Of a stretch of DNA of 64,000 bases, positions 18,698 through 57,127 are shown piece by piece. The notes under the pieces are model-generated. The model did not search any database and was not told the origin of the DNA. It was given only the letters and a program-made list of their open reading frames with translations. The DNA is from Candidatus Brocadiia bacterium. GTDB taxonomy: Bacteria > Planctomycetota > PUPC01. The translations under genes were made by a program, and so were the position numbers. Position 1 is the stretch's first letter. Every line of letters begins with the position of its first letter. The DNA lies in NCBI GenBank assembly GCA_030605345.1, contig JAUWIN010000001.1:5253-69252 (forward strand). The letters are read 5' to 3'.

Positions 18698-19762
18698 TTA
18701 CACGTCGGCGTAGGTCAGCCCTTGCCAACAGCCCTCGTCCTCTATCCGCTGGGCGATATTGACGTCATACGCGTCGGCGACCGGTTCGAGGACCCACGGC
18801 GAACTGTCCCAAACGTTCCGAAGGGTATTTCTGACGACGTCCAGAGCGGCGGGTGTCATCCTGCCCAACGGCCTGCGGGTCGGCCCCGCCGGCATACCCA
18901 GGCCGTTCATCAAAGCCTTGATAGCCAGTGGGTTCCGGAATTTGTCCTTGACCGACCGGATCGAGCCGTCCGGCATGGTGCGCTGGTCGTCAGAGACAAC
19001 AGTGACGATGCCGAAGAGCGGCTCGAGGGCGCTGTGGATTTGGGTTGCCCGGTCGCTGTTACCTTCAAGTGCGGCCTTGACCATCTGTGAGACCGGGCCG
19101 GGTACGATGTTGCTCATCACCGAAATGACCCCCTGCGCGCGGATGCGGTCATCCAGCATGATGTCTAGGGTAACGCCGTCGTCGCCGGAGAGGATATCGA
19201 ATTCGTCCCCCACGAGGCTGCGGGTGACGGCCATGCGTTTGGTGTCCCCCGTGGCTTCCTTGACGGCGGTAACGTTTGGATGTTCGGCGGCCAGGATGGC
19301 GAGGTCTTCCGGCGACAGCGCCGTGCCGCTTCGGCCGGGTATGACGTAGGGGATGACGGTGCAGTCGGGGCAGGCGGCGGCGACAACGCCGTGATATTCT
19401 CGCCGCAGTTCCAATGTCGAAGGCCCGTTGTAGTAGCAATCGACCAGGAGCAGGGCGTCGGCACCGGATCGTGCGGCGTGTTTGCTCCCCTGGACTGCCT
19501 CGTTGGTGGAGTTGCTGCCAGTGCCCGCGATGAGAAGACACCTGTCCGCGGTCGTTTTTATGGCGCCGTCTATGACTTGATTATGTTCCTCCCAAACCAG
19601 GGCCGGTGACTCGCCGGTCGTGCCGGTGGGAAGGAGCCCGCTGATACCCTGGGCTATCTGGAAGTTCATGTTTTTCTCGAACCCGGCCCAGTCCACTGAA
19701 CCGTCCGCGAGGAACGGAGTTACCAGAGCGGTGTGAGCACCTGCAAAGCTCTTTGGAGACAT
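18698..19762 (-). CDS. dihydrodipicolinate synthase/N-acetylneuraminate lyase family (DapA-family) enzyme with a ~60-aa C-terminal extension
   Basis: TGTTGESPALVWEEH and KEATGD (Schiff-base lysine region) place it in the DHDPS family. Start MSPKSF chosen. Confidence 0.7.
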   Translation of the reverse strand: MSPKSFAGAHTALVTPFLADGSVDWAGFEKNMNFQIAQGISGLLPTGTTGESPALVWEEHNQVIDGAIKTTADRCLLIAGTGSNSTNEAVQGSKHAARSGADALLLVDCYYNGPSTLELRREYHGVVAAACPDCTVIPYVIPGRSGTALSPEDLAILAAEHPNVTAVKEATGDTKRMAVTRSLVGDEFDILSGDDGVTLDIMLDDRIRAQGVISVMSNIVPGPVSQMVKAALEGNSDRATQIHSALEPLFGIVTVVSDDQRTMPDGSIRSVKDKFRNPLAIKALMNGLGMPAGPTRRPLGRMTPAALDVVRNTLRNVWDSSPWVLEPVADAYDVNIAQRIEDEGCWQGLTYADV

Positions 19763-19943
19763 GTCTTCCTCCTGCAACGATTGCTTTCGTGTTACAGCGA
19801 CATTCTACCTGTGAGCGGGTACCGCCGCAATCAAAATCGCGGTCACATGTTGCGTCTGAGGTGACGACAGCACGCGTTCTATAAAATCGAGGGCCGACTC
19901 GCGAGAAATTGGGGAACATCAGCACTACACAGCAACAGTGTAG

Positions 19944-20948
19944 TCACCATTTTTCGCCGAAGGTCCTAGCCATTATTTCCGCCGTGGCGTGGCGAAAAGT
20001 GTGATACATCCGAACATACTCGCATCCGGTGTTGGCGATCCGGCGCCTTTCACTCTCCCTCGGAAGGTAGTAATCGATGAGTTCAAGACACTCTTCGACC
20101 GACTGGAACCAGACAAGATGCTCATGGTTCGTGAAGTATTCCTCGAGGTTCGGAACGTACCGCGTCAGGAGAAACCCACCACATCCCAGGGTTAACCAGG
20201 TACGGTTGGAAAAGTACAGATCCAGATCGTTCTTCCCGTCAATCCCGATTATGATCTTCGTTGAGGCGCAGATTTTCCGGTACTGCTTCGGGTAGACATG
20301 TCGCCTAGCTGGGGCTTGTCGTAAAGCGCTTTCCCACCCCTGACCGTATAGCTTGAGTGAAAACCGCTCTGCAATGGCTCGTAAGAGCCCCGTCCGGTTC
20401 GGCATATTTGCGCTACCGATGAAAGCAACGTCTGCGAAGTAACCCGGGTCTGGCGAATCCGGGAAGTGATCTGTCGGATCACACCCGCCACGAATGTAGC
20501 TGACGTTACGGACCCCCATGCTTTTGAAATCAGGGACGTTGCCGCGAGCAGTCGTGAACATAATGGAACATCGACGGCCTAGCTCAATTAGCTCATGGCT
20601 GGCCGCATAAAATAGGTCTTGATAAAACAAGGCCGTGAGGACGCCATTTGGAACAGCGTCCAGCATATCAACAGTGGCGTCCTTGGAATAAATCAATACC
20701 ATATCAGGCTGGAAGCGACGCATACGCCAACATGTGTATCTTAGCCCGTTCTTGTTCCCGAGAAGGCGTGCGACTTTGTGTGTATTAATCCAGAGAACTC
20801 TGTGCCCGTTCTGTTGGAATCCACGTATTAAATGGGCGGTAACCCGGGTGTGACGCTTGTGTTTTGCGAACAAAAGGACGCGGCGCTCTTTGCGAGCAAC
20901 TGGAATGGAATCAATCGTGTACCGGGTGCGCATGGGAAAATCGTTCAT
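19944..20948 (-). CDS. CgeB-like glycosyltransferase (Glyco_trans_1_2 / DUF3880)
   Basis: C-terminal YFSNRTWLTLGCGGFLLTRYVPNLEEYF...LVWFQSVEECLELIDYYL matches the CgeB family pattern. Start uncertain (MNDFPM chosen). Confidence 0.6.
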   Translation of the reverse strand: MNDFPMRTRYTIDSIPVARKERRVLLFAKHKRHTRVTAHLIRGFQQNGHRVLWINTHKVARLLGNKNGLRYTCWRMRRFQPDMVLIYSKDATVDMLDAVPNGVLTALFYQDLFYAASHELIELGRRCSIMFTTARGNVPDFKSMGVRNVSYIRGGCDPTDHFPDSPDPGYFADVAFIGSANMPNRTGLLRAIAERFSLKLYGQGWESALRQAPARRHVYPKQYRKICASTKIIIGIDGKNDLDLYFSNRTWLTLGCGGFLLTRYVPNLEEYFTNHEHLVWFQSVEECLELIDYYLPRESERRRIANTGCEYVRMYHTFRHATAEIMARTFGEKW

Positions 20949-21405
20949 TCGGAAAACGCCAGATTGCCCGAAACCAAACCCGCGGAGGCTTTTTCGCGTG
21001 TTGGAAGATCGCCCCAGCCAGCACAGAGGTCTGGAGTCCGCAACCCTCGCAGCAATCCAATCCTCAGTTCGCCAGCCAAACCGCCTGCACTCCACACCGG
21101 GTCAACAAAACACATGAGGCCAACGGAGTATTCGCGACACGCTTCCTCCATGGCAAACCGTCCTTCAATCTCCAGCAAAGTTCGCGCATAGTCCTCCGTG
21201 GCCACGGCATACTACATCTGCTGACCGCTGGGGTCAAGTACGTAGCAAGGGGACGGCGTCAAGTAAACTGTGCAACCAGGATATGCGTCCGTTCAGCGCC
21301 AGATAGAAGTCGACCTTCTTTTTCCCAGCCAACTGCGCTTTTGCTGGTGAGGCGGCGGCCATGACAACTTGATTGCTGGCGGCTAGCTCCGTAGAATTGC
21401 GGCCG

Positions 21406-44132: not shown

Positions 44133-44543
44133 TCAGAACGTGTCCAACATGCGGATATCCGCCTGTGACTCGGCGAGTTTGGCAAGGCGGCGGTCTGCGG
44201 TTACCAGCGTTCCATTAACCTCGAGCGCGAGAGCTACATAGGAAGCATCGTACACGCTGGCGCCCGTTGTACCCGCTACGTGAATCGCTCGAAAAATCAG
44301 TCCGGCGTCCAAAGCCGAGAAGGAGATGCCAGTATCAAGCAGCTGACGTATCGAATTCTGGACCTGCGAGGGGGTCAGTTCGATTTTCCGCAGAAGGATG
44401 TTAGCGACCTCGTACAACAACATATCGGGGGCGGCCATATCGAGGCTTCCGAGCAAAGCCTGCTCGCAAAGCGCAAGAGCCTTGTCGGAATCATTTTCTC
44501 TTACGAACCACTTTAACGCCACAGATGCATCGATGACATACAC
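44133..44543 (-). CDS. vapC: PIN-domain ribonuclease toxin (VapC family)
   Basis: MYVIDASVALKWF... conserved acidic residues (D5, E-region, D near C-terminus); 136 aa. Overlaps the upstream small ORF by 1 nt. Confidence 0.75.
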   Translation of the reverse strand: MYVIDASVALKWFVRENDSDKALALCEQALLGSLDMAAPDMLLYEVANILLRKIELTPSQVQNSIRQLLDTGISFSALDAGLIFRAIHVAGTTGASVYDASYVALALEVNGTLVTADRRLAKLAESQADIRMLDTF

Positions 44544-44779
44544 TAGCGCTCTCTTTCCTCTCGAACTAGTGTCACCACGTCTTTGCCCTTAGCCTTACCC
44601 TTTGTTAACTTCTGAATCTTCTCGAAAGCCTTTAGTACTTCCTGTGCTGGTTTGGGGCTGCTCAATCTTCGCAACGTCCGATACGTGGCGCGGGGCTCCT
44701 TGGTCTGCCCGGAATCCTTGTCCTTCTTGTCTTCATCCATCGCCATTCTCCCGAAGGCGGTCAATTCTAACAATACCAC
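44543..44779 (-). CDS. putative antitoxin partner of VapC (small Lys-rich protein)
   Basis: 78-aa ORF (or 67 aa from the internal MAMDEDKK start) immediately upstream of and overlapping vapC. No clear AbrB/RHH motif, so assignment is by context. Confidence 0.4.
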   Translation of the reverse strand: MVLLELTAFGRMAMDEDKKDKDSGQTKEPRATYRTLRRLSSPKPAQEVLKAFEKIQKLTKGKAKGKDVVTLVREERER

Positions 44780-44792
44780 GAATATCCAAGGA

Positions 44793-47648
44793 TTACCACC
44801 TCAGCGGCGCCTGCCAGGATTCTTTGAGGCCGATGATGGATTCACGGATGACCGTGTCGCCTCCGAGACCGGTTACCGCGAATGTTCCGTCGTCGGTGAT
44901 TGTGCCGACCTGCGCACAGGATGCGGCGGTCATTGCGTCGCAGAATGCCTCAACTTTCCCCGGCTCGACCTCGACGATGAACCGCGAGTTGGATTCGGAG
45001 AAGAGGAGCTTGGCATCTTCTTGCGCCTCGGCCGAGCAAGGGACCTTCGCCAGGTCGAACCGCATGCCCAACCCGCCAGCGAAGGCCATCTCGGCCGCGG
45101 CGACGGCAATCCCGCCCTCGCTGCAATCGTGACAGGCCCTGACCAGGCCTGCCGCCGTCGCCCTTGACAGCGCGGTAAAAACCCTCAGGCCGAGGTCGGT
45201 GTCGACCTGCGGCACGTTTCGGCCCAGTTCGCCGTGGATGTCGTAGTAGTGCGACCCGCCCAGTTCATCCTTTGTCAGGCCGACCACAAAGACAAGGTTT
45301 CCGGGCTGCTTGGCGTCCATCGACACGGCCTTGGTGACGTCGTGCATCACGCCCATCGCCGAAATCAAAAGCGACGGCGGGACCGCAATCGTGCCGCCGT
45401 CCACCTGGTATTCGTTGTTCAGGCTGTCCTTCCCGGAGACGAACGGTGTTCCGTAAGCCTTCGCAACGTCGTAGCAGGCGCGTGCGGCCCGCACCAGCCC
45501 GCCGAGCCGGTCGGGCTTGTCGGGGTTGCCCCACGAGAAATTGTCCAGCAGCGCCGCACGTTCGAGGTCGCCGCCCCCCGCAACCAAGTTTCTCAGCGCC
45601 TCGTCAATGGCGGAAGCCGCCATGTGGTACGGATCGATCAAACCATACTTCGGGTTCATCCCGTTGGAAACGACCAGCCCACGCCGCGAGCCGAGCACCG
45701 GCGCGACGATGCAGGCATCGCCCGGCCCGTCGTTCTCGGCCCCCACCAGCGGCTTCAGCACGCTTGCGCCCTGAACCTCGTGGTCGTACTGGCGTATAAT
45801 CCACTCCTTGCTGCACACGTTCCACGAGCCCAGAATGTTCTTGAGGTCCTCGCCGTAGTCGGTCTTCGCGGGCAGGTGGGGTTCTTTCAGCGCCGGCTCG
45901 CTCCACTCGGCCTTGCGCTCCAGCCGGGGCACTCCGTTGTGGAGGAAGTCCATCTCCAGGTCGCAGACTTGCTCGCGCTGATAGTGGAGGACCAGCCTGC
46001 CGCTGTCGGTATAGCGGCCGAGGGTTGTGGACTCGACGTTCTCGGACGCGCACAGTTCGTGCAGCGCCTGTTCGTGCTCCGGGGGGACGGCTATGACCAT
46101 CCGTTCTTGCGCCTCGGAAATCCACATCTCAGTGTAGGTGAGGCCATCATATTTGAGCGGGACCGTGGCCAGGTCAACCTCGGCCCCGATGTCCTTACCC
46201 ATCTCGCCCACTGCGGAGGACAGTCCCCCCGCCCCGCAGTCGGTGATGCAGGAATACCAGCCCCGGTCGCGCGCTACCAGGAGCACGTCGCGCATCTTCT
46301 TCTCCATAATTGCGTTGCCAATCTGGACGTGGCTGCTGGAGGTTTCTTCGTGCAGTTCGACGGAGGCGAACGTGGCGCCGTGTATGCCGTCTCGGCCGGT
46401 GCGCCCGCCGACGACCACGACGAGGTCGCCTGGCCGGGCCGCCTTCTCACAGCCGTCCCGCGGGATAAGGGCGAGGTTGCCGCAATACACCAGGCAGTTG
46501 CCGACATATCGCTCATCGAAGAAAACCGCGCCGTTGGCGGTGGGGATGCCCATACGGTTGCCGTAGTCGCGGACGCCGGCGACGACGCCGCGCATAATCC
46601 GCCGCGGGTGCATCACGGCCTTCGGCAGTTTGTGGGGAGGATAGTCGGGCGGCCCGAAGCAGAACACGTCGGTGTTGAGGATCGGCTTTGCGCCCATGCC
46701 GGTGCCCATCGGGTCGCGGATGACCCCTCCGATGCCTGTGCCGGCGCCGCCGTAAGGCTCGAGAGCAGACGGATGGTTGTGGGTTTCGACCTTGAAGGCG
46801 ACGCCCCAGTCTTCGTCGAACTCGATTACGCCGGAATTGTCCTCGAACACGGAGAGGCACCACGGCTTGTCCAGTTCGCGAGTAACCCGCATCACGGTCT
46901 GTTTCAGCAGGTTGTCGATGATTTCGCCGTTGTAGTTGATGATGCCGCGAAAGGTCTTGTGGACGCAATGCTCCGACCACGTCTGGGCCAGGGTCTCCAG
47001 TTCCACGTCGGTCGGGTTGCGGCCGAGCTTCTCGTAGTAGTCCTGGATTGTCTTCATTTCGGCAAGGTTTAGCGACAGCACCCCCTCCCGGCTGATCCGC
47101 TCCATTTCGCCTTCATCGGCTTCCAGCAGCGGCACCACCAGCTTCTCGAAAGGTGTCTTCGAGCCAGTCGTGATCTCGTGTATCTTTTCGCCGCCCAGAA
47201 TAAGATGTTCGATGATGTCGTTCGCCAGCACCTTCTCGCCGATCCTTTTCGCGTCGGCCGCTGCCAGCGAGCCGTAGATGTAGTATTTCCGCGCCGTGCG
47301 AACGGCCGATGCCCGGAGACCCATGTCGGCGATGCCCTTGAGGGTGCTCGCTTCCACCGGGTCCATCACGCCTGGCTTCCGCACGACCTGGACGATTTGG
47401 AGGTCGCTGCGGCTTTCGTCGAGCACCGGCTCGCCGACCGCATACCTGTCCACCACCGGATCGCTCAAGAGACGGTCTGCAATCCGCTCGACCTGTTCCC
47501 GCCCCAGTTCGGTCTGTATGACGAAAACCCGGACTCGCCGCACCTCCTCGATTCCGGAGATGCCGATTGCCTCTGCCTCGCTCTTGACAGTCTGGCCTTC
47601 GGGGTCGAGCTGTCCGGGCTTCAATGCGATTTCAATCTGCCAGAGCAA
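44793..47648 (-). CDS. purL: phosphoribosylformylglycinamidine synthase subunit PurL with N-terminal PurS-like domain(s) (PurS-PurL fusion)
   Basis: N-terminal WQIEIALKPGQLDPEGQTVKSEAEAIGISGIEEVRRVRVFVIQ is PurS-like and is followed by a second PurS-like repeat. The remainder has PurL AIR-synthase-related domains (GAGTGIGGVIRD, SNGMNPKYG). Confidence 0.85.
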   Translation of the reverse strand: MLWQIEIALKPGQLDPEGQTVKSEAEAIGISGIEEVRRVRVFVIQTELGREQVERIADRLLSDPVVDRYAVGEPVLDESRSDLQIVQVVRKPGVMDPVEASTLKGIADMGLRASAVRTARKYYIYGSLAAADAKRIGEKVLANDIIEHLILGGEKIHEITTGSKTPFEKLVVPLLEADEGEMERISREGVLSLNLAEMKTIQDYYEKLGRNPTDVELETLAQTWSEHCVHKTFRGIINYNGEIIDNLLKQTVMRVTRELDKPWCLSVFEDNSGVIEFDEDWGVAFKVETHNHPSALEPYGGAGTGIGGVIRDPMGTGMGAKPILNTDVFCFGPPDYPPHKLPKAVMHPRRIMRGVVAGVRDYGNRMGIPTANGAVFFDERYVGNCLVYCGNLALIPRDGCEKAARPGDLVVVVGGRTGRDGIHGATFASVELHEETSSSHVQIGNAIMEKKMRDVLLVARDRGWYSCITDCGAGGLSSAVGEMGKDIGAEVDLATVPLKYDGLTYTEMWISEAQERMVIAVPPEHEQALHELCASENVESTTLGRYTDSGRLVLHYQREQVCDLEMDFLHNGVPRLERKAEWSEPALKEPHLPAKTDYGEDLKNILGSWNVCSKEWIIRQYDHEVQGASVLKPLVGAENDGPGDACIVAPVLGSRRGLVVSNGMNPKYGLIDPYHMAASAIDEALRNLVAGGGDLERAALLDNFSWGNPDKPDRLGGLVRAARACYDVAKAYGTPFVSGKDSLNNEYQVDGGTIAVPPSLLISAMGVMHDVTKAVSMDAKQPGNLVFVVGLTKDELGGSHYYDIHGELGRNVPQVDTDLGLRVFTALSRATAAGLVRACHDCSEGGIAVAAAEMAFAGGLGMRFDLAKVPCSAEAQEDAKLLFSESNSRFIVEVEPGKVEAFCDAMTAASCAQVGTITDDGTFAVTGLGGDTVIRESIIGLKESWQAPLRW

Positions 47649-47662
47649 ATCTGTTCTCCGTG

Positions 47663-48541
47663 CTAATTTTCAGTTTGACGTTCTGCGCCCCCAGCCCCGG
47701 ACTCCAGCGAAGTCCTTCGGCGGCAAGCACGTTCGAGGGCCTCCCTGAGGTCGTCCCACTGGCGGCTTTTCAGAAGGGCGCGGATGGAATCGAATTCCCC
47801 CGCAAATCGTTCCAGTGCCTCCATGACATTCTCGCGATTATCCTTGAGCACGTCGAGCCAGAGATCGACGTCGCTTGCGGCGATTCGGGTCACGTCCTTG
47901 AGGCCCGTCGCGGCGTAAGGGAGGCTGGCCTCGTCGGCCGCATTGATCGTCGTCACCGCAATAACGTGCGGGAGGTGGCTGATCTGGGCTACCGCGCGGT
48001 CGTGCTCGTCGATGTCGAGCATCTGGACCGAGGCGCCGAGCGCCTGCCACATCTTTCGGATAGTTTCCACGGCATCAGACGCCGTCTTGTCCGTCGGTGT
48101 CAGGACACAGCGCGCGCCGTCGAACAGGTCAGGCCGGGCGTTCTGGACGCCGCGTTTTTCCGACCCCGCCATCGGATGCGCCGGCACGAACGCGATGCCT
48201 TCGGGCAGGACCGCTTCGACTTTCCTGGTGATATTCGCTTTTGTGCTGGCCACGTCGGTGAGGATGCTGCCCGGCTTCATCGCACGGAGCGCCTCCGCCG
48301 CCTTCTCCGCGGTCAGGCCCACCGGCGTGCAGATGACGACGATGTCAGCCTCGGCCGCACCCTCGGCAATGTCGAGCGTCCACCGGTCGATGGCGCCGCG
48401 TTCTTCTGCTCGCTTGAGGGAGATGTCCCGATGCCCGACGCCTACAACCTGCCGCGCCAAAGCACGCCTTTTGAGCGCAAGGCCCAACGCCCCGCCAATC
48501 AGCCCGACGCCAACAATAGTAATCCGTCCAAAATCGGCCAT
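47663..48541 (-). CDS. tyrA: prephenate/arogenate dehydrogenase
   Basis: Rossmann ITIVGVGLIGGALGLAL plus AHPMAGSE (catalytic His region). Confidence 0.8.
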   Translation of the reverse strand: MADFGRITIVGVGLIGGALGLALKRRALARQVVGVGHRDISLKRAEERGAIDRWTLDIAEGAAEADIVVICTPVGLTAEKAAEALRAMKPGSILTDVASTKANITRKVEAVLPEGIAFVPAHPMAGSEKRGVQNARPDLFDGARCVLTPTDKTASDAVETIRKMWQALGASVQMLDIDEHDRAVAQISHLPHVIAVTTINAADEASLPYAATGLKDVTRIAASDVDLWLDVLKDNRENVMEALERFAGEFDSIRALLKSRQWDDLREALERACRRRTSLESGAGGAERQTEN

Positions 48542-48829: not shown

Positions 48830-49050
48830 CAAGGCAGGAACGATACGTCGGAATAAATCAAGGACCTCGATAATCTGAAGCCGATAGACCACGCGGTGAC
48901 CGCGAAACCCCAGACCCCGGTCTACAAGATGCACCGCTACTTCGCCCGACGCCCCTGGAGCGTCTTTCGCGCCCTCATCGAGCACTACTCGAATCCCGCC
49001 AGCATCGTCCTCGACTCATTCTGCGGCGGTCATAGTCACGCGATTGTGTG
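48830..49050 (+). pseudogene. remnant of a DNA (N6-adenine/N4-cytosine) methyltransferase gene, C-terminal motif-I region only
   Basis: KPQTPVYKMHRYFARRPWSVFRALIEHYSNPASIVLDSFCGG matches the hkYPa.fP..L...lI..yt.pgdlVLDPFaGSGTT region of beta-class methylases. No DPPY domain precedes it and the frame degenerates right after FCGG. GC-rich (native), located at the edge of the low-GC block. Confidence 0.5.
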
Positions 49051-49225
49051 CGGCCCTGCGCCTCGGTGCCGGGGATCCTTCTTGCATTGCCCACAGACGG
49101 GTGATACTCTGCGGCAGCAAATGCGCGGTGGATGAGGAATAAAACTGTCGGCTCTTTTTTTCTTGCGCGGCGACTGTTTCCTGCTATCTTTTCACTTGGC
49201 CGAAGTGTTACGAGGTAGGAAGGCC

Positions 49226-50428
49226 ATGCCTTGTTGGGGAAGGTTCAGAAGCGGCCCCTGGGTTGGTGCTCTGGCGGGTCTAGTTGCTGGCTTACTGATA
49301 GTTCTGGCAATCTCTGACCGCGTGAGCTATGTGCCGTATTCCCACTCCGCGGCTTGGAAAGGCGTCAATTGGGGGAAAGTAAGGGAATTGGGTGCGAACA
49401 TAGGCGTTGTGTGTGGGGCGCTAGCAGGTGTTATAGTAGGTATTCGGGCCGCTATCGAGGAGTTTGAATCGATCTTGGCAAGGAGCCTGGCATGCCTTTT
49501 GGCCGCAGGTATGGGATTGTTTGTTGGTGCTCTGGCTGGCGCCCTGGGCGGCCTGATTGCTGCTCTCCTTATCGTAGCTTTACTCGCGGCCTTGCTCCCT
49601 GTCGTGATAGGTGTTGTTTGTGGAGGGCTCGGCGGATTTCTTCTTGGTCCCGCCGCAAACGAGCTCTTTTATTCCCGTCCTGGTGGCCATCCCAACGAGG
49701 TCCCTGCTGGCTGCACAATTGGAGCCATCGCCGGCGGAGTTGTTTCCGCGCTTGCGTGGAGCTTAGAGAAAAGGTTTCTCGGCAACACGGTTTTTATTCC
49801 CATATTCGCACTTGCCGGATACCTCACTGGACACGGAATCGGCAAACTCGTAGATGGTGTGGGTCTAGCCGAAGTTGTCGATTTGGAGCTAGACGAGGAC
49901 GAGGAGATACGTACGGACGAAACGCCCTGGGGCGAGGATCAAGCAAAAAGAGAAGAAATCGACAGGCTAGTTGCAGAAACGATGGTGGTAATCAAGACGG
50001 CCAGGGCGAGAACCTCGGACCCAACTATTACAGCCGCGCTTATGCTACTGGAAGAAGACCTGCTGAATGTAGCAGACGAGTTCAAAAGTGGGGTAATATC
50101 ATACTCCGATGCAAGGGCAAGGGTCGTACAGATTAAGCAAGACGCGGAAGCCCTGGGATCCACTACGGGCGGTGGAAGGACAACGAAGGAGCGGGTGGAG
50201 AAGGAAACTTACTACGCTATCCTGGGCATCAAGCCCGATGCGAGTCAAGACGAAATCAAGAAAGCTTACCGCGCGAAAATGTCGGAGCATCACCCTGACC
50301 ACTACAGGAATAAGCCAAAATCGAAGCAAGAAGAAGCGGAAGCGATGAGTAAGAAGGTGAACGAAGCTCATGAAGTCCTAATGGACCCAAATAAGCGTAG
50401 GGAGTATGACCGAGACATTGGGGCATAA
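49226..50428 (+). CDS. multi-pass membrane protein with glycine-zipper-like helices and a C-terminal DnaJ (J) domain
   Basis: Repeated GxxxG-rich hydrophobic segments (GMGLFVGALAGALGGLIAAL, VVCGGLGGFLLGP). C-terminal J-domain YYAILGIKPDASQDEIKKAYRAKMSEHHPDH...EAHEVLMDPNKRREYD with the HPD motif. RBS GAGGTAGGAAGG before the ATG at 49226. Confidence 0.6.
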   Translation: MPCWGRFRSGPWVGALAGLVAGLLIVLAISDRVSYVPYSHSAAWKGVNWGKVRELGANIGVVCGALAGVIVGIRAAIEEFESILARSLACLLAAGMGLFVGALAGALGGLIAALLIVALLAALLPVVIGVVCGGLGGFLLGPAANELFYSRPGGHPNEVPAGCTIGAIAGGVVSALAWSLEKRFLGNTVFIPIFALAGYLTGHGIGKLVDGVGLAEVVDLELDEDEEIRTDETPWGEDQAKREEIDRLVAETMVVIKTARARTSDPTITAALMLLEEDLLNVADEFKSGVISYSDARARVVQIKQDAEALGSTTGGGRTTKERVEKETYYAILGIKPDASQDEIKKAYRAKMSEHHPDHYRNKPKSKQEEAEAMSKKVNEAHEVLMDPNKRREYDRDIGA

Positions 50429-50463
50429 CCCGACAGAACGAATAGCGAAATGGACGGCAAAGA

Positions 50464-51261
50464 ATGAGCAACATGCCAGAGCTAAGCAAAAAACAAATGG
50501 AAGTTCTGGGAAAAGTGACTCGCAGGAGTGCCGATATTCGTGCATCCAGCGCCGCCAGACGCACAAGAATCCTTGACATAGCACTCCTTTTTGACACTAC
50601 CGGTAGCATGTATCCGTATCTCGAGAACGTTCGGCAAAATCTGAGCAGACTCGTATCGGAAATTGGCTCAGCTCTGCCCGACGTATGCTATGCAGTAATT
50701 GCGCATGGCGATCACCCTGACGCCGACACGACCTATGTCACCAAGACGTGTCAACTGACCCGCGACGCAGAGAGGGTGACTAATTTCATAATAAACGTGG
50801 AACCAACAGGCGGAGGAGGTCCGGAGGCGCTCGAGGACGCTTTACACGAAGCCAATGCGTTGAAGTGGAGGGAACGCTCCAATAAGGCGGTCGTCCTGGT
50901 CGGTGACGCCCCACCACACGGGGTTGTCGATAGCTTTAGTGAGTGCCCCTGCGGATTTGACTACAGGAAGGAAACAAAAGGCCTATGTAGAAAGGGCATC
51001 AAGATTTATTCGGTCCTATGCAACCCGAACAATGTTGACAGAACCGAGGAGGTCTTTAGATGGTTTGCGAAGCAAACCAAAGGAAGATTCCTGACGCTGG
51101 AGAACATCGATGACCTCACCGACCTCCTTATCGGTGTCTGCATGAAAGAAGCGGGGTTGCTAACATCGTTCGAACACAAATTGCTGCAGGCTAACAAGAT
51201 GACACCTTCGAAGAGGAGGTTGATGCTTCAGCTCAAGGAGAGCGGTCATGATAGTTCCTGA
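50464..51261 (+). CDS. von Willebrand factor type A (vWA) domain protein with MIDAS motif, cytoplasmic
   Basis: LLFDTTGSM (DxTxS MIDAS), downstream T and D ligands, VVLVGDAPPHG, then a Cys cluster CPCGFDYRKETKGLC. No signal peptide. Low GC. Confidence 0.7.
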   Translation: MSNMPELSKKQMEVLGKVTRRSADIRASSAARRTRILDIALLFDTTGSMYPYLENVRQNLSRLVSEIGSALPDVCYAVIAHGDHPDADTTYVTKTCQLTRDAERVTNFIINVEPTGGGGPEALEDALHEANALKWRERSNKAVVLVGDAPPHGVVDSFSECPCGFDYRKETKGLCRKGIKIYSVLCNPNNVDRTEEVFRWFAKQTKGRFLTLENIDDLTDLLIGVCMKEAGLLTSFEHKLLQANKMTPSKRRLMLQLKESGHDSS

Positions 51262-51463
51262 CCCTTTCAAGCTCGCGAAGATCATCTTAGTAATCCAAAT
51301 AAGATCAATTGTAGCTATTCTGAAAATCATGGGGTACATTTTCTATTTCGGCATTGAAGTGGCGTGGTACGTAGCGCATGGTCGAAGGGACAGGATAGGC
51401 GAAGCAATCGGAAGGTTCGGCCAAAGCACAGTCGATGCGTTTGGAGACATCTTTAGGTTATGA
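51248..51463 (+). CDS. small hydrophobic protein (71 aa), hypothetical
   Basis: ORF overlapping the vWA stop; two predicted TM segments (IILVIQIRSIVAILKIMGYIFYFGIEVAWYV). Could be spurious. Confidence 0.25.
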   Translation: MIVPDPFKLAKIILVIQIRSIVAILKIMGYIFYFGIEVAWYVAHGRRDRIGEAIGRFGQSTVDAFGDIFRL

Positions 51464-51999
51464 GAAGAACCCGTGGAAAGACCATGGGCGCGAAAAGAGT
51501 TACTATCAGATTCAAGTGCGTCTGCCGCCAATCCGTGCGCGTATCTGGCGAACACGCTGGGAAGAAGGGAAGGTGTCCGGCATGTGGTGCAATACTGCGG
51601 ATTCCCAGGGACAGCGGGGCGCCAGCCCATGTAGAGATCTCGGTTATTTGGGCTCTTCGCCTGAAACTTCTGATGAACCGCCTCTGCGAGTGCTTGCTCT
51701 GCTCGTATTTTCCCTTGCGGAAATGGGGGGAGATACTCTCCATAGACTGGCGTGCCTTGCTAGTAGTCCTGCCACTAACTGCGGGCTTGTTAGTCAGCCT
51801 CATCCTCTGGCTTTACGCGGCGGGACCTGAAGCGCTACACCTTGCGATTGTTTTCTCCGTTCTCACGGGGACATATGGGTGGCTCACAGCCTTTGCATTT
51901 TTTTTCGGGCGCTCGACCCGCGACCTACAATTCTCCTTGGATACCCTACGCCATCGTCGACGAACCTTGCGCCAGGATCTCGAGAAGCTTGGTCCCTGA
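51460..51999 (+). CDS. zinc-ribbon (CxxC...CxxC) membrane protein, hypothetical
   Basis: N-terminal KCVCRQSV...CPACGA zinc ribbon followed by three hydrophobic helices. Low-GC island cargo. Confidence 0.4.
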   Translation: MRRTRGKTMGAKRVTIRFKCVCRQSVRVSGEHAGKKGRCPACGAILRIPRDSGAPAHVEISVIWALRLKLLMNRLCECLLCSYFPLRKWGEILSIDWRALLVVLPLTAGLLVSLILWLYAAGPEALHLAIVFSVLTGTYGWLTAFAFFFGRSTRDLQFSLDTLRHRRRTLRQDLEKLGP

Positions 52000-52011
52000 C
52001 AGAGTGAAGAG

Positions 52012-52134
52012 TTACTTCAGTTTCTCTCGGCAGATGTTGCACTTGCCGTCCTTGCCGCAGCGGCTACAGTACTTCCTTCCACATATCTTGCACGTCGACA
52101 ATGCAGCTGTTTTACCGCAAACATCACACGGCAT
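52012..52134 (-). CDS. 40-aa zinc-ribbon mini-protein (4 x CxxC), not in the ORF track
   Basis: Reverse strand GGAGGTGAGGAAG-ATG..., translation MPCDVCGKTAALSTCKICGRKYCSRCGKDGKCNICREKLK*. It has a strong SD and 8 Cys arranged as four CxxC pairs. Confidence 0.45.
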   Translation of the reverse strand: MPCDVCGKTAALSTCKICGRKYCSRCGKDGKCNICREKLK

Positions 52135-52434
52135 CTTCCTCACCTCCTTACAGGGCCGAATATCCCCACTCAACCGTTTGCGTACGACCAACCATGACGT
52201 TGAAAAAGTATACGTTGGTCGAACGCTGTTGTCAAACGGTTTCTATCACCCCAATATAGCGATTGGTATTTTGTAGGATGTAAAACAATAGCCTCGTTGG
52301 TGGTGTCGCCCTATGACATGACAAACTAAAATCATGTGACACCCCATGTTACGCTGCGCGTTCAAGGGAAGAAAATTAAACTTCCTGAAGCAGAAGGCCC
52401 CGCAGCATAACCTGTTGCGGGGCCTTATCTTACG

Positions 52435-52496
52435 TGGTGCCGAGGGCGGGATTTGAACCCGCATGCCCCATAAGGAGCACTAGGCCCTCAACCTAG
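52435..52496 (-). tRNA. tRNA-Leu (anticodon GAG) 3' fragment, 5'-truncated (pseudo-tRNA / att-site remnant)
   Basis: Reverse complement ...CTAGGTTGAGGGCCTAGTGCTCCTTATGGGGCATGCGGGTTCAAATCCCGCCCTCGGCACCA gives an anticodon arm (loop TTGAGGG), a long variable arm, a T-arm and the acceptor 3' strand + CCA. The complementary 5' acceptor strand (GCCGAGG) is absent. A hairpin plus U-rich tract follows the 3' end. Confidence 0.55.
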
Positions 52497-52661
52497 CATG
52501 TCTGCCAGTTCCATTAAGAAACTCCCGTATCGGGGGAATGCTTTCTCTAACCTATCTATTGCTCCTGTAAGAGAATCCAATATGAACTCATCAGACCTCA
52601 TTTGCTTCCTGCGAATGTTTTCTACATACTCTTTTTGCTCTGACATTTGGCAGACCTCATA
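52488..52661 (-). pseudogene. truncated low-GC ORF (57 codons) reading into the tRNA-Leu fragment
   Basis: MSEQKEYVENIRRKQMRSDEFILDSLTGAIDRLEKAFPRYGSFLMELADMLG*; its last ~10 codons are encoded by tRNA-derived sequence. It looks like a gene N-terminus cut by an integration or deletion junction. Confidence 0.3.
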
Positions 52662-52852
52662 AACGCTGATAGAAGTCTCGGTAAGCGAAGTTGCATCAAT
52701 CTAATTCCAGTAAATCTGGACAGTTACCTATTTCGTGCTGAACTCATCACTTCATTGTACTTGATGCCGGTTTGGGGTCAATCCACGGCTGGCAGGACGT
52801 TGGGAAGTGGAAGGGGCATCGAAGAACAGGCGCGCGCTGCTGGCAGGTGGTC

Positions 52853-55800
52853 TCAGTGCAGGAGGTCGCGGAGGAGGCCCTTGAGCGCGTCTGCCGGCTC
52901 GTCCTTCTTTTCCTTTTTCTCGTCGCGGTCTCTGTGTTGTTTCAACCTGTCCTTCAGGATGCCTTCGATTAGACTGCGGGGGTCTCTAAGGATGTCCGTG
53001 ACCAGCGAGAGCACCCATTTGGGAAAAGTGGTCAGGTCGGCTGCGATGCGCGGCTTGTCGAAACGGCCGGACACGCCGAACGTGCAGAACGCGGGGCGTT
53101 TCTTCTCCAGCGCTTTCTCCACCACGGCGAGGGCGGCCTCCTGCTTCACCACTTCCCTCTTCACATAGTTCATCAGCAGTTCCGTCGGCGCCATGACGGC
53201 AACGTCCATCTGGATTGTGCCGTCCAGGCCGACCGAGGCTTTCTGTATCTCGAGGTCGAGGTTGTTCCTACCCTCCAGCAGCAGGTCATCAGCGTGCACC
53301 CGCCCTCTTCTCAGGTGCAGGTCCAGGTCGAGTTGGTCGTAGCGGTATTTGTTATCGGGGAGCGCGGCGGCGCCGAGGTGCCGAAGGATCGGGCCGGCTA
53401 ATCCGGCGACCAATGGAGACCGCTCGAAGTTCAATATCACGCCGTCATTGAGGGCGAACTTCATGTCCGCGGTCCAGTTGGTTGTGATGTCATCCCACGC
53501 GAATCCTTTCCCTTTCCAGGTTACGTCGCCGCCAACCCGACCCATGAAGACATCCTTGAGTGACAATTGTGCAGTTGCCACGTTGTTGAGGTCGATTTTT
53601 TGGATGACGATTTCTCCGTTGTGCGCTATCCCAGGTTGGTTCAGGTCTGCTGCCAGACTGGCGCGGACAGTTCCCTGATGGACCTCCGCCCGGAACGGCT
53701 TGGAGGTGGTGATTTTATTCCCCGCCATCCGCAGGTCAGTCGAAATATTTTTGACGATATGTTTCTCATAAGTCAGTTTTTCAACTTCAAGATGACCAGT
53801 GACCGTGTGATTTTTCAGGAACTCGAATTGTGTCCGGGCGCTCGGAGCGGTGGTAGTTTCTCGCACACCGGGGTTGGCCTTCTCCGGCAGTGCTGCGAGC
53901 AGATGGCCTGCGTTCACGTGGGGCGAGGACACCGAGAACGCCAGGTGAAGTGCGTCGGTGTGGGCGAGTATTGGGGCGTTCTTTTTGGCCGCGGTTATCC
54001 GCAGCTCCTTGAACGTCAGCGTAGTATCGCTTTTCGGCGCACGGGTGGACGCGCCCACAGTAAGTCCGGCGGCATCAATACTGTTCCGGTTCATTCGGAT
54101 CTCGCCGTTCGCCGTGAACCCCAGCCGGCCGGAAGTGGCGGCGAGTTGGTCAAGTCTGACCACGCCGCTGAATTCGGCACCACCCAGGCTGCCGGCGGTC
54201 ACTTCGTCGATGGGCACCCTGCCGGAGGCAGACAAGTGGAGTTTGCCGGAAAGTTCGAACTCTCTGAGGGCGGGCACCATGGCGGTCAGCATCGCTGGGC
54301 GTTCAATCACGGCGGTCAATTTCTGGCAGACGAACGTGCCGAAGTCGTCAGACACCTGCCCGTTGAGTCTGAGTTCCGCGCCGTCGAGCAGGACATCGAG
54401 CCGGGATACGTCCACCCCGCCATTTTCGGCCAGCGCTGCTCCGAGTTCTACCGTAGCCTTTTTGGCGCGAGGCTTGGCAAAGAACTCACCGTACTCGAGC
54501 GAGGCCGCTGTGGCGTCAGCAGAAAAGGCGATTTTTGTGGGGGATGCTTGTTCAACGTTGAGGGTGAACGGCACGGCGCCGGTGGCCTTGAGCTGCGGGG
54601 GCAGGAGCCCCTCCGGCAGCGTGGCGAGAGAATCCAGGAAGACCACGCCCTCGAACGAGGCGCTCGCGGACAGTTTCCTCGCTGCGGCCAGCGGCTCGGT
54701 CCGAAACTTATCAATGTCGAGCCCCGATACCGTGCACTGCTCTTTAAGCGTCACCCGGCCATAGGCAGTGTTCGCCTCCAGATTGTCCAGTTCCAGTTCA
54801 CCTTTTCCAGTGTCGAGCCGTCCGGCCAGTTCGAGGCGGCCCTTGGTGTCGATGCCTTCTGGGATTAGTTTCAGCGCTGCGAGCAGTGGGCCGAACTTGT
54901 TGGTCTTTGCAGCGAGCCGCACCTCCACCGCTCCCTTCAGGGCCACGTAATCATCTATCGTGCCGCTTACGGAGGCCGCGAGATCGGATGACTTGAAGTC
55001 CAGGGTTTTTATCTCCACCTGCTTCTTGGCCAGGTCTGCGCTGGCGTCGCACTGGCAGACCAACTCGCCCTTCGACAAAATATCCAAGACGGGGGCGGCT
55101 GCGCGGCCCGCCTGTGGCGGGTCGGACCGGCCGGCTATGGAGAGGTTTTTGGCGGCGAGTTTGAACTTGGTCCTGAACTTTCGAGCCGTGCCGCTGAAGG
55201 AGCCGTCGGCCACAGCCATCTGACCTTGGGGCTTGATTTCGGACAGGACATCAATGTAGGCGGACAGCCGCGACGCAAGGGCGCCCAGGTCAGCGGTGCC
55301 GCTGAAACTTAGCTCTGCCTCCGGCGCGCCAGTAAGGTCGCTGAAACTACCGATTAGTGCGACTTGGGTGTAGGGCATCTCGGCCTCGCCGGCTGTCAGC
55401 ATAACTTTGCAGTCACGGGCGTCAATTTTCGCCCCTCTCGCGTCCAGCCTGGCAGCTACGCTGAACCGAACCGGGGCCGGCTTGCCCTGCTCACGTTCGA
55501 GTTTTGCCGCGGCCGCCACTTTGGCGTGTCCCTCTTCACCCTTTCCCGAGAACTTCAACTCGAGTTTGTCGTGGAGCGGCGGCAACCCGAGGGCCTTGCC
55601 GAACTTGCTTGTGAAGGTGCGGCCGCTGAACCGCACGTAGCCCGAGAGGTCGGTGCCGAGGCTGTTTAGGTCAGACAGCGACCACACCCGCCCCTTCACT
55701 ATCCGGGCGTCGAGGAAACTGGACTTCGCCTCCAGCGAACCAATCGCCAGCTCCTTTAGTTTTCCTTCGGGCGTGAACTGAAGCCCGGCTTCCGCGCTCA

Positions 55801-57127
55801 GTGCGGTGTCCTCGGGCGGGAGTGTGCTCCCGCCGGTGAGCGAGGGGTGGGCCTGAAAATCTGCGATAGAGATGGACACCCGACCATTCAGCGCGGCCGA
55901 CGTGCCGCTGATTTTCAGCCGGCCGGTTATACTTCCGCGGGAAGTGGCCGGCCCGCCGTCGGGCGGGGTCGGCATTCCGAGTGATTTCGCCGCTGCGCCG
56001 CCGGTCAATTTTGCCAGGTCGCAAGTGAAGTTCAGCGAACCGAGAAAGCTTTCGGCCCCGGCATCCTTCATTTCGAGACTGAACTCCCCCTCGGAGAAAG
56101 GTTCGGCCTTGAAAGTGATCCGTGCCGACAGATCCCGGCCTGGTATGTCCATGCTCGAACTCAGGTCCGCGGCGAATGTGAGGCCGTCGAACACAGTGTC
56201 ACCGGTGAGGTTGCCCACCGCCGTGACTTGGCCGGCGCGCTCGGCTGAGACGGAAATCTCTCCGTTGACGGACTCGACCGTCGCCGGCAGGCCCAGGGTC
56301 CCGCAGATACCGCCCAGGGGGAACCGCGTCAGGGTCGCGCTCAGGAGTTCGCCCATGACCTGCCGGGGTTCTATGGTGCCGTTGTGAAACAGGCGGGCGT
56401 TCCCCTTCATCAGGAAGGAGCCCTTGCTGGCGTTGCCGGTCACGCGGTAGCGCAATGGCCGGGCCAGCCCCGGAAGGTTGGCCTCGGCGGTGAGGTCTTT
56501 GAGCATCGTCTCGCGCCGGGTGTCGCCGAGGCAGTCCCGAAAGAGGAGTCGGCCGCCGTCCCACTTGAACTCGAGCGAAAGTTCCTTCAGCGGCTCGGTT
56601 TCTTTTCTCTCAGACTCAGACCCCAGCTCTTGCTTTTCTGGCTCCGGCTTCAGAAGGTCAGCGATGTTCAAAACCCAGCCGGCGCCCCGCTCGATTAGGA
56701 CCCGCGGCTCGGCGATTGCCACGCGCGCATGCACCTTCCTGCCCAGGCTCGCAAGAGCAGACAAGACATTGACCCGGACGTCGAGTTCCTTGACTCGAAT
56801 GAAGTCCTCGGCGCTAAAGCCTTCCCTGTTGGCGATTCTCAACCCTCCCACCTTGACCCCGCTGAAGAGGTCTAGGTCCAGCGATTCCACTGAGACTTTC
56901 CGTTTCAGCGCCGCCCCGGCGTAGCTGCAGAACATTCCCTTCAGCCGCGCCTCAGTAAAGATGAGCGGGAAAAGTATTGCCGCAAGTACAATCAGAGCGG
57001 CAAGGCCGCCAACCACATAAAGGGCGATCTTCACGAGCCGCCGGCGCCTTGTGGGCTTGGGCCGGCCCGGCTCCCCGGCGGCAGCCGCTGCCGCCCTAGC
57101 CCCACTGCTGGAACCGCGGTCTGTCAT
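52853..57127 (-). CDS. AsmA-family / TamB-like giant inner-membrane-anchored envelope biogenesis protein (1424 aa)
   Basis: N-terminal Arg-rich region plus a single TM anchor (IALYVVGGLAALIVLAAILFPLIF), then >1300 aa of beta-rich repetitive sequence typical of AsmA/TamB (DUF748/DUF490-like), and a C-terminal Lys/Glu-rich tail. Confidence 0.6.
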   Translation of the reverse strand: MTDRGSSSGARAAAAAAGEPGRPKPTRRRRLVKIALYVVGGLAALIVLAAILFPLIFTEARLKGMFCSYAGAALKRKVSVESLDLDLFSGVKVGGLRIANREGFSAEDFIRVKELDVRVNVLSALASLGRKVHARVAIAEPRVLIERGAGWVLNIADLLKPEPEKQELGSESERKETEPLKELSLEFKWDGGRLLFRDCLGDTRRETMLKDLTAEANLPGLARPLRYRVTGNASKGSFLMKGNARLFHNGTIEPRQVMGELLSATLTRFPLGGICGTLGLPATVESVNGEISVSAERAGQVTAVGNLTGDTVFDGLTFAADLSSSMDIPGRDLSARITFKAEPFSEGEFSLEMKDAGAESFLGSLNFTCDLAKLTGGAAAKSLGMPTPPDGGPATSRGSITGRLKISGTSAALNGRVSISIADFQAHPSLTGGSTLPPEDTALSAEAGLQFTPEGKLKELAIGSLEAKSSFLDARIVKGRVWSLSDLNSLGTDLSGYVRFSGRTFTSKFGKALGLPPLHDKLELKFSGKGEEGHAKVAAAAKLEREQGKPAPVRFSVAARLDARGAKIDARDCKVMLTAGEAEMPYTQVALIGSFSDLTGAPEAELSFSGTADLGALASRLSAYIDVLSEIKPQGQMAVADGSFSGTARKFRTKFKLAAKNLSIAGRSDPPQAGRAAAPVLDILSKGELVCQCDASADLAKKQVEIKTLDFKSSDLAASVSGTIDDYVALKGAVEVRLAAKTNKFGPLLAALKLIPEGIDTKGRLELAGRLDTGKGELELDNLEANTAYGRVTLKEQCTVSGLDIDKFRTEPLAAARKLSASASFEGVVFLDSLATLPEGLLPPQLKATGAVPFTLNVEQASPTKIAFSADATAASLEYGEFFAKPRAKKATVELGAALAENGGVDVSRLDVLLDGAELRLNGQVSDDFGTFVCQKLTAVIERPAMLTAMVPALREFELSGKLHLSASGRVPIDEVTAGSLGGAEFSGVVRLDQLAATSGRLGFTANGEIRMNRNSIDAAGLTVGASTRAPKSDTTLTFKELRITAAKKNAPILAHTDALHLAFSVSSPHVNAGHLLAALPEKANPGVRETTTAPSARTQFEFLKNHTVTGHLEVEKLTYEKHIVKNISTDLRMAGNKITTSKPFRAEVHQGTVRASLAADLNQPGIAHNGEIVIQKIDLNNVATAQLSLKDVFMGRVGGDVTWKGKGFAWDDITTNWTADMKFALNDGVILNFERSPLVAGLAGPILRHLGAAALPDNKYRYDQLDLDLHLRRGRVHADDLLLEGRNNLDLEIQKASVGLDGTIQMDVAVMAPTELLMNYVKREVVKQEAALAVVEKALEKKRPAFCTFGVSGRFDKPRIAADLTTFPKWVLSLVTDILRDPRSLIEGILKDRLKQHRDRDEKKEKKDEPADALKGLLRDLLH

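Follow-up and report, generated by a model that had tools for sequence, protein, structure and literature searches.

A conserved pair of J-domain and vWA genes, probably coupled to Hsp70, on a decayed island of a Candidatus Brocadiia chromosome

Background

The chromosome of a Candidatus Brocadiia bacterium (Planctomycetota; GenBank assembly GCA_030605345.1, contig JAUWIN010000001.1) includes, within the 64,000-nucleotide stretch that was analysed (positions 5,253 to 69,252 of the forward strand, here called the window and numbered from its first letter), a 3.7-kb block of low guanine-plus-cytosine (GC) content at approximately 49136-52852, which encodes a membrane protein with a J domain, a protein with a von Willebrand factor A (vWA) domain, and several small open reading frames (ORFs). 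Which of these genes belong together, and what might they do? A preliminary description, made from the letters of the DNA without database searches, had proposed a five-gene module combining the J-domain protein, the vWA protein and zinc-ribbon proteins. The comparisons reported here point to a smaller unit: genes A and B probably constitute a two-gene, Hsp70-coupled vWA module, a counterpart of the MoxR-vWA pairs, and the window is better annotated as carrying a decayed island of which the meaningful cargo is two genes, not five.

The J-domain protein and the vWA protein

The two genes of the putative module are:

Gene A, 49226..50428, + strand: 400-amino acid (aa) membrane-anchored J-domain protein
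Gene B, 50464..51261, + strand: 265-aa cytoplasmic vWA protein

The product of gene A begins with a Gly/Ala-rich, multi-helix membrane region (aa 1-235), in which hydropathy indicates at least four strongly hydrophobic segments bearing 21 small-xxx-small (GxxxG-type) motifs. This is followed by a three-helix bundle (aa 235-311, positions 49928-50158), a flexible linker and a J domain (aa 328-395, positions 50207-50410) that scores 74.9 bits (E 5.3e-21) against Pfam DnaJ (PF00226, cut-off 27.8) and in which the HPD motif is intact (H356-P357-D358, positions 50291-50299), in agreement with the preliminary description of a multi-transmembrane glycine-zipper protein with a C-terminal J domain. AlphaFold2 (AF2), in a model that rests on two sequences, assigned predicted local distance difference test (pLDDT) scores of 82-86 to the three-helix bundle and 80-89 to the J domain, and was unreliable in the membrane part. 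A protein 44% identical to A over 98% of its length (P0124) is a full-length homologue, and was the sole true homologue returned by a full-length database search, the word filter of which was saturated by the Gly/Ala-rich region. The match of A to the DjlA family (NCBIfam NF006948, 39.2 bits, cut-off 162) is confined to the J domain, and A is not a DjlA member. A candidate EAD11 domain (PF19964) in A was rejected, since the match reached 15 bits against a cut-off of 26 (E 0.025) and is absent from seven homologous J proteins. A metagenome contig from the same population (L165:1-399) reads HPY where A has HPD, which is probably a sequencing error.

The product of gene B matches Pfam VWA (E 9.4e-8; 32.9 bits, cut-off 23.8), its vWA domain being nearest to the VWA_4/integrin-beta-like group, and the best fold matches of its AF2 model (pLDDT 88, predicted template modelling score 0.83) in the Protein Data Bank are integrin beta I-like domains (E 2e-10). 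The N terminus of the protein forms a helix (aa 9-33), and the C terminus carries a helical extension (aa 215-261) that is conserved. Its metal ion-dependent adhesion site (MIDAS) reads D44-x-T46-x-S48 (positions 50593-50607), with a further motif, G147-DAPPHG, at positions 50902-50922, and D44, T46, S48, D148 and H152 are among the invariant columns in 36 homologues of B; the complete set of MIDAS ligands is present, and metal binding is predicted. The vWA domain and the intact MIDAS had been recognised in the preliminary description, and that part stands; the Cys cluster listed with them, considered as a zinc site, is not conserved among the homologues of B and was discarded.

Conserved pairing of J-domain and vWA genes

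Genomes and metagenomes provided a set of 160 loci carrying the vWA family, taken with flanking sequences no longer than 10 kb (2.0 Mb in total), and all their ORFs were compared with the proteins of the block. A J-domain ORF lies no more than 600 nucleotides (nt) from the vWA gene in 25 of the 160 loci, which belong to Archaea and at least seven bacterial phyla; the two genes are always co-directional, with gaps mostly of -13 to +24 nt, and a single J-domain ORF was found elsewhere in the 2.0 Mb. Among the closest homologues of the vWA protein (at least 215 bits), 16 of 19 loci, including L003, have the J neighbour. The pair also occurs in L163 and in L164, an unclassified metagenome contig that shares the gene order of the window, and the J domain is confirmed by Pfam in ten of the partner proteins. 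The carriers include Ca. Argoarchaeum, Cyanobacteria, Sericytochromatia, Chlorobiaceae, Verrucomicrobiota, Phycisphaerales, Saccharibacteria and unclassified metagenome contigs.

The partner proteins have two architectures. In the first, transmembrane helices, a coiled coil and a C-terminal J domain are encoded upstream of the vWA gene (the window, L003, L005, L039, L087, L163, L164); in the second, an N-terminal J domain followed by TPR/HEAT repeats, with or without C-terminal transmembrane helices, is encoded downstream of it (L004, L006-L009, L014-L016, L027 and others). In both, the end of the gene that encodes the J domain adjoins the vWA gene, which argues for selection on the pairing itself. 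No third conserved component was found beside the pair in a census of 120 neighbour genes from 17 loci, which yielded scattered XisH/XisI, VirD4-like, Uma2 and PIN genes amid housekeeping genes, and nothing recurrent. The neighbourhood analysis suggested in the preliminary description thus returned a conserved J-vWA pair and no recurrent defence gene.

In oscillatorian cyanobacteria (L004, L021, L027 and L034, for example L034:9911-14109), genes for a conserved 151-aa protein and for a coupling-protein ATPase of the VirD4/TraG-like type come after the vWA-J pair, and these loci may represent the cassette in an extended form of four genes. The gene that follows P0124 (L163:1566-2018) encodes an atypical vWA protein with a B-like N-terminal helix (KKQxxVLxRIRRRS), which reads I-N-C-S-N-S-M where B reads F-D-T-T-G-S-M and may be a MIDAS-degenerate paralogue.

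Association of the vWA subfamily with Hsp70

Fusions of Hsp70 to vWA were identified by Pfam in L010 (766 aa), L012 (P0138, 720 aa), P0127 and P0172, and another, in L131, was assigned by sequence search only (jackhmmer). The Hsp70 part of the fusions consists of the nucleotide-binding domain and the beta-sandwich substrate-binding domain, extending to approximately position 490-520 of the 599-position profile, and the vWA domain replaces the helical lid of Hsp70. Downstream of the fusion in L012 lie GrpE and a second Hsp70, whereas the fusion in L010 has an FGE-sulfatase protein ahead of it and a HEAT-repeat protein after it. The J-vWA pair of L005 has as its next neighbour downstream a 290-aa protein holding only the substrate-binding domain of Hsp70. 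A direct fusion of the J domain to vWA also exists (P0135, 317 aa; DnaJ at 5-70, VWA at 104-273). Adjacency in two arrangements, together with fusions to the J domain and to Hsp70, constitutes strong comparative evidence that the vWA protein works with the Hsp70 cycle, and on this genomic evidence the vWA subfamily is shown to be a habitual partner of Hsp70 machinery. This link, overlooked in the preliminary description, is the most informative fact about the locus.

That description had found the combination of J and vWA domains not assignable to any described system, and indeed none was found in PADLOC, NCBIfam, PHROG or literature searches. No description of the J-domain/vWA pair or of the Hsp70-vWA fusions was found in a full-text literature search of incomplete coverage, and the novelty is accordingly provisional; judged from comparative genomics, the conserved link of J-vWA pairs to Hsp70 appears to be a modest but real one.

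The wider vWA family

Relatives of B numbered 183 in a first search and are patchily distributed. The closest, 61% identical, belongs to the archaeon Ca. Argoarchaeum ethanivorans, whereas relatives in Planctomycetota are merely 39-43% identical. When a profile of B was compared with 1.8 billion representative proteins, 1,042 clusters (at 50% identity) matched at E<=1e-30 and 11,098 at E<=1e-10. Longer members of the family include ubiquitin-, Ras/Roc-, BRCT-, WWE-, SAM- and RING-fused forms of eukaryote-like appearance. Relatives of approximately 360 aa are also encoded by phages, namely crAss-like Bacteroides phages, a Rhizobium phage and a virus of 197 kb that came from a methanotrophic enrichment; the best (E 1e-37) is that of Virus Rctr197k from a DAMO/ANME enrichment, and the phage records KX853510.1 (L169:1470-2549) and MN988519.1 (L170:3983-5086) encode vWA relatives. 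No annotated J-domain neighbour is present beside the phage relatives of B. A search of plasmids with B gave one weak match.

Slightly more distant members of the vWA family (180-220 bits; L091, L092, L096, L104, L011, L018 and L019) have no J partner. The loci of the L091 type (for example L091:1479-6304), among which are contigs of Nitrospirota- and Desulfuromonadales-type metagenome-assembled genomes (MAGs), resemble magnetosome gene clusters, their neighbours being a MamK/MreB-like actin, small membrane proteins, CxxCH magnetochrome-like PDZ proteins and a cation-diffusion-facilitator transporter.

Proposed function and related systems

J domains dock on ATP-bound Hsp70 (DnaK) and trigger ATP hydrolysis, whereupon the substrate-binding domain closes on the client; the MIDAS of vWA proteins binds an acidic side chain of a partner through the bound cation; and vWA proteins act as co-chaperones of MoxR AAA+ ATPases. 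In the Hsp70-coupled module that A and B probably form, the canonical J domain of A, with its HPD motif, is predicted to stimulate Hsp70, and would dock the host DnaK and trigger ATP hydrolysis. A would also tether B at the membrane, probably by way of its own three-helix bundle and the N-terminal helix of B, which recurs in the divergent vWA-like neighbour of P0124 (L163). B would capture a ligand through its MIDAS, and the J domain would then fire the housekeeping DnaK, which would clamp, and then remodel or release, either the vWA-bound client or B itself.

Several observations weigh against this interpretation. The island has no Hsp70 gene, and use of the host DnaK is an assumption; B might equally well act as adaptor, client or regulator. 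The membrane region of A is not conserved among the J partners, some of which are soluble, the structural model of A was built from just two sequences, and the J domain of the Argoarchaeum protein (L003:8551-9759) has HSD, not HPD. Finally, 135 of the 160 vWA-family loci have no J neighbour, and the J association therefore defines one prokaryotic sub-clade, not the whole vWA family. If the interpretation holds, the pair would represent a new class of substrate-selecting partner for bacterial and archaeal Hsp70 networks, a simple two-gene system in which to study the transfer of a folded client, bound at a metal site, from a J protein to Hsp70, and a source of working annotation for the J-associated branch of the large family of "hypothetical vWA proteins".

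Among membrane-anchored class III J proteins, DjlA, DjlB and DjlC of E. coli resemble A in having a membrane anchor and a cytoplasmic J domain with HPD, which would bring Hsp70 activity to the membrane, but they have no similarity to A beyond the J domain, and A has several Gly-rich helices and a three-helix bundle. DjlC works with HscC, and to our knowledge none of the three has a vWA partner. The MoxR-vWA pairs (RavA-ViaA, CbbQ-CbbO, NorQ-NorD, and the VMAP ternary systems of Kaur et al. 2020) are likewise compact, mobile and patchily distributed cassettes in which a MIDAS-containing vWA protein is genetically coupled to an ATP-driven remodelling machine; they differ in that the ATPase would here be Hsp70, reached through a J domain or a fusion, and not a MoxR AAA+ protein, no gene for which was found in the block or in the census of J-vWA neighbours. 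The TerY-P triad differs from the pair in that B has no PADLOC match and that neither PP2C phosphatases nor Ser/Thr kinases are among the neighbours in the block or the census. GAP1-N2 GTPase conflict systems carry Hsp70, GrpE and DnaJ-fused proteins (Kaur et al. 2020, PMC7159879), and in CoCoNuT systems the CnuD Hsp70-like/HEAT units are found with TerY-like vWA genes (Bell et al. 2024, PMC11090510), so that these mobile multigene systems, too, bring together parts of the Hsp70 family with HEAT repeats, J domains and vWA domains; however, they are built around GTPases or McrBC, with a TerY-like vWA protein accompanied by a kinase and a phosphatase, none of which is present here.

Accompanying open reading frames

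Three further ORFs follow gene B within the block:

ORF C, 51248..51463, + strand: 71 aa, hydrophobic; overlaps the end of B by 14 nt; Shine-Dalgarno sequence AAGGAG
ORF D, 51484..51999, + strand: 171 aa with the ATG at 51484 as start (179 aa with a start at 51460)
ORF E, 52012..52134, - strand: 40 aa with four CxxC pairs, convergent with A-D

ORF C was found solely in the same population (L165). ORF D has an N-terminal zinc-ribbon-like motif (CxC...CxxC) and hydrophobic helices, and its start is called at 51484 in L165. ORF E has a strong Shine-Dalgarno sequence (AAGGAGGTGA) and a promoter-like site, TTGACA-17-TATACT, at 52235-52207; its matches in Pfam are sub-threshold and B-box/RING-like only. 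No family match was obtained for C, D or E in Pfam, NCBIfam, PHROGs or PADLOC, the last three of which assigned none of A-F to a named family other than the J domain, and no homologue of C, D, E, the membrane part of A, or ORF F (at the right edge of the block) was detected by jackhmmer among the ORFs of the 160 vWA loci. Because they lack homologues there, the zinc-ribbon ORFs are regarded as passengers: by these searches C, D and E are lineage-specific, plausible genes outside the conserved cassette. All of the cargo ORFs of the preliminary description are present as described, but its count of three zinc-ribbon proteins is too high: only D and E have zinc-ribbon-like Cys pairs, and the family of B does not conserve the Cys cluster.

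Alternative explanations

The five-gene system of the preliminary description, in which A-E act together through J, vWA and zinc-ribbon membrane components, draws on the co-orientation of A-D with overlapping or short junctions, on the recurrence of the A-B-C-D order in a second sample, and on loose parallels of D and C elsewhere, the archaeal cassettes having a Cys-rich membrane protein (DUF2085) just upstream and L164 a 71-aa ORF. It is nevertheless very unlikely: the second sample, being 99.5% identical, comes from the same population; D has no match to DUF2085 in a Pfam scan; E is convergent and has its own promoter-like site; and with C, D, E and F lacking homologues in the 160 loci, and C, D and E in the family databases, the conserved unit is A plus B. 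It is hardly credible, on the other hand, that A and B are themselves unrelated hitch-hikers whose adjacency is functionally meaningless. Their partnership does rest on comparative data, but those data include 25 adjacent J genes against one non-adjacent in 2.0 Mb, two distinct gene orders and architectures, and proteins in which J and vWA, or Hsp70 and vWA, are fused.

Two explanations retain the pair and give it a different purpose. It may be devoted to assembling an envelope or organelle structure, or to inserting a cofactor into one, with a lineage-dependent client and no role in conflict, as would fit the S-layer-domain proteins that follow the cassette in both archaeal loci, the slightly more distant vWA members in magnetosome-like gene clusters, and the parallel with metalloenzyme activation by MoxR-vWA pairs, maturation being the classical role of vWA-MIDAS proteins that have an ATPase partner (Kaur et al. 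2020, PMC7159879). We consider this doubtful, since no client gene is conserved beside the J-vWA pair, the neighbours of the pair in the window are orphan ORFs, and the magnetosome-type loci have no J partner. A chaperone-gated conflict or abortive-infection module, in which a pore-former or membrane effector lies latent in the glycine-zipper region of A, is unlikely, as is the control that it would entail, with the J and vWA proteins holding A under DnaK or sensing an invader until perturbation of DnaK or binding at the MIDAS frees the membrane damage. The foreign DNA with its methyltransferase and DUF3883 debris would suit such a module, as would the patchy, cross-domain distribution, which indicates horizontal transfer, the proximity of some J-vWA loci to toxin-antitoxin genes, Uma2, STAND NTPases, VirD4-like ATPases or XisH/XisI, and the FGE-sulfatase protein ahead of the Hsp70-vWA fusion in L010. 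There are also published precedents: CoCoNuT operons contain glycine-zipper proteins and Hsp70-like/HEAT/vWA parts (PMC11090510), and bNACHT25 is reported to sense phage in a DnaJ-dependent manner (PMC12169576). However, A-F have no match in PADLOC-DB 2.0 at E values up to 1, the methyltransferase stub alone having one; the neighbour census contains many housekeeping genes and no recurrent defence gene; the membrane/glycine-zipper part is missing from many J partners; and the weak EAD11 match in A is not reproduced in its homologues. The foreign context that the preliminary description recognised is upheld, and its stress/defence role is not, there being neither a PADLOC match for A-F nor a recurrent defence neighbour. 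With low probability, the cassette and its fusion relatives might constitute a hitherto undescribed class of chaperone-gated sensor-effectors with immune or abortive-infection logic, the host chaperone serving as a guarded hub; in such a class the MIDAS would detect a foreign or stress-exposed protein, the J-recruited Hsp70 would set the threshold, and, in forms anchored in the membrane like that of the window, the glycine-zipper region would permeabilise the membrane.

Composition and boundaries of the block

The elements at the two ends of the block are:

DNA methyltransferase remnant, 48896..49135, + strand: N4/N6 DNA methyltransferase stub; GC 0.63, GC at third codon positions (GC3) 0.74 (native-like)
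AT-rich leader of gene A, 49136..49225, + strand: GC 0.49; left edge of the compositional island
GC-rich hairpin, 52394..52426, - strand: 14-bp stem, an inverted repeat 93% complementary
tRNA-Leu(GAG) pseudogene, 52435..52516, - strand: tRNA positions 8-76 including CCA; anticodon GAG at 52487-52489
ORF F, 52488..52646, - strand: 52-aa N-terminal stub of a larger protein; GC 0.42

In 1-kb windows the GC content of the block is 0.49-0.53, compared with a mean of 0.60 (standard deviation 0.032) for the whole window, and in 400-nt windows it is 0.47-0.57 over 49000-52800, compared with 0.60-0.67 in the flanks. The separation is sharper in GC3, which is 0.43-0.63 for the ORFs of the block and 0.75-0.82 for the flanking genes:

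PurL, 44793-47648, - strand: GC3 0.82
TyrA, 47663-48541, - strand: GC3 0.75
AsmA-like gene (1424 aa), 52853-57127, - strand: GC3 0.75
Island ORFs: GC3 of A 0.54, B 0.59, C 0.51, D 0.61, E 0.63, F 0.43

These profiles, proposed as a check in the preliminary description, set the block apart as compositionally foreign relative to its flanks. The fall in GC given there, from approximately 65% to 40-50%, is real but overstated, as the block is never at 40-50% throughout, and the dip, placed to end at approximately 52700, reaches approximately 52850, some 150 nt farther.

At the left, a sequence resembling a Shine-Dalgarno site (AGGAAGG) precedes the ATG of gene A, and no consensus sigma-70 site was found by a promoter scan of the leader. 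The ORF beyond the leader (48896-49135) matches Pfam N6_N4_Mtase over aa 13-50 below the cut-off (E 2.3e-4), PADLOC PglX (2.7e-7) and many MTase_II models, with approximately 45 recognisable residues around a D-S-F-C-G-G region; a degraded methyltransferase at this edge, as first described, is therefore plausible, though the Pfam score is sub-threshold. No integrase survives, as had been claimed, insofar as integrase families had no matches among the seven ORFs tested in 48896-52646, the intervening DNA not having been searched for integrase fragments.

At the right, the tRNA-Leu(GAG) fragment is real, on the minus strand and truly truncated, and extends to 52516, not 52496 as initially given. 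Its D arm, anticodon arm, long variable arm, T arm and 3' acceptor strand are intact, and only the 7-nt 5' acceptor strand is gone, replaced by unrelated sequence; the Rfam tRNA model scores it at 25.6 bits (gathering score 29) over model positions 8-63. The hairpin, which starts 8 nt past the CCA end, is probably the terminator of the tRNA. The truncated, low-GC ORF that had been noted to read into the tRNA is ORF F. Along 47 aa it shares 46.8% identity (E 3e-7) with the N-terminal end of a DUF3883-domain protein from a haloarchaeal (Halosimplex) plasmid; it is broken where it meets the tRNA fragment, and belongs to the right-hand part of the foreign block, which reaches approximately 52852. 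A 95-nt "tRNA-Ile(GAT)" reported by ARAGORN at 52472-52566 (- strand) is an artefact across the junction of the truncated tRNA and ORF F. This junction looks as though a deletion or illegitimate recombination had joined the inside of a gene to the tRNA at position 7/8, and does not look like the att site of an integrase. A second att copy, which the preliminary description had suggested seeking, is not present within the window: with up to 3 mismatches allowed, the 25-mer from the 3' end of the tRNA has no other match, and 15-mers match at the rate expected by chance, with no att repeat. The block resembles tRNA-associated genomic islands in being a deviant segment beside a tRNA gene with decayed mobile and defence genes at its edges, but differs from them in having no integrase match and no direct repeat of the tRNA 3' end, and in that the tRNA is damaged at its 5' end; we know of no site-specific integration that damages the 5' end of a tRNA.

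Because GC and GC3 deviate, gene debris lies at both ends, relatives share only the tyrA-purL side, and the nearest vWA relative is archaeal, the block at 49136-52852 is considered a decayed, horizontally acquired insert in the planctomycete chromosome.

Chromosomal context

The best named relatives of the window's TyrA are from Planctomycetota MAGs, at 68% identity, and the synteny comparison was made at this distance, with no closer relative having an empty site among the genomes compared. Two of these relatives have the same order as the window, tyrA-purSL-(PIN toxin pair)-purQ-SIS-STAS. Upstream of tyrA, at the position of the island, the relatives (L166, L167 and L168) have a cluster of the ArsP permease/thioredoxin/DsbD/ArsR type, and no J-domain or vWA genes are present at their tyrA loci. 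Since this cluster is unrelated to the island, the side of tyrA that holds the island appears to be a recurrent integration site or variable spot in the lineage.

Proximity to vapBC had been cited in favour of a stress/defence role, an argument that fails: the vapBC-like pair (44133-44779, - strand; a 136-aa PIN toxin and a 78-aa antitoxin) lies between purL and purQ, and a PIN gene occupies the same position in L166 and L167, which have no island. The vapBC insertion is old and vertically inherited, and is therefore uninformative on the island. In the same region, PurS is fused to the N terminus of PurL (44793-47648, - strand; 951 aa, TTG start), a fusion also present in the loci of the relatives. 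The A-B-C-D order is found again in the metagenome contig L165 (1.9 kb, 2x coverage), which is 99.5% identical to 50030-51896; being from the same population, it offers no independent support for the gene order.

Elsewhere in the window, a second patch of low GC (0.52-0.54) at 19750-21100 covers a 383-aa ORF (19944-21095, - strand) that appears on reading its sequence to be of the glycosyltransferase type, and may be another acquired gene.

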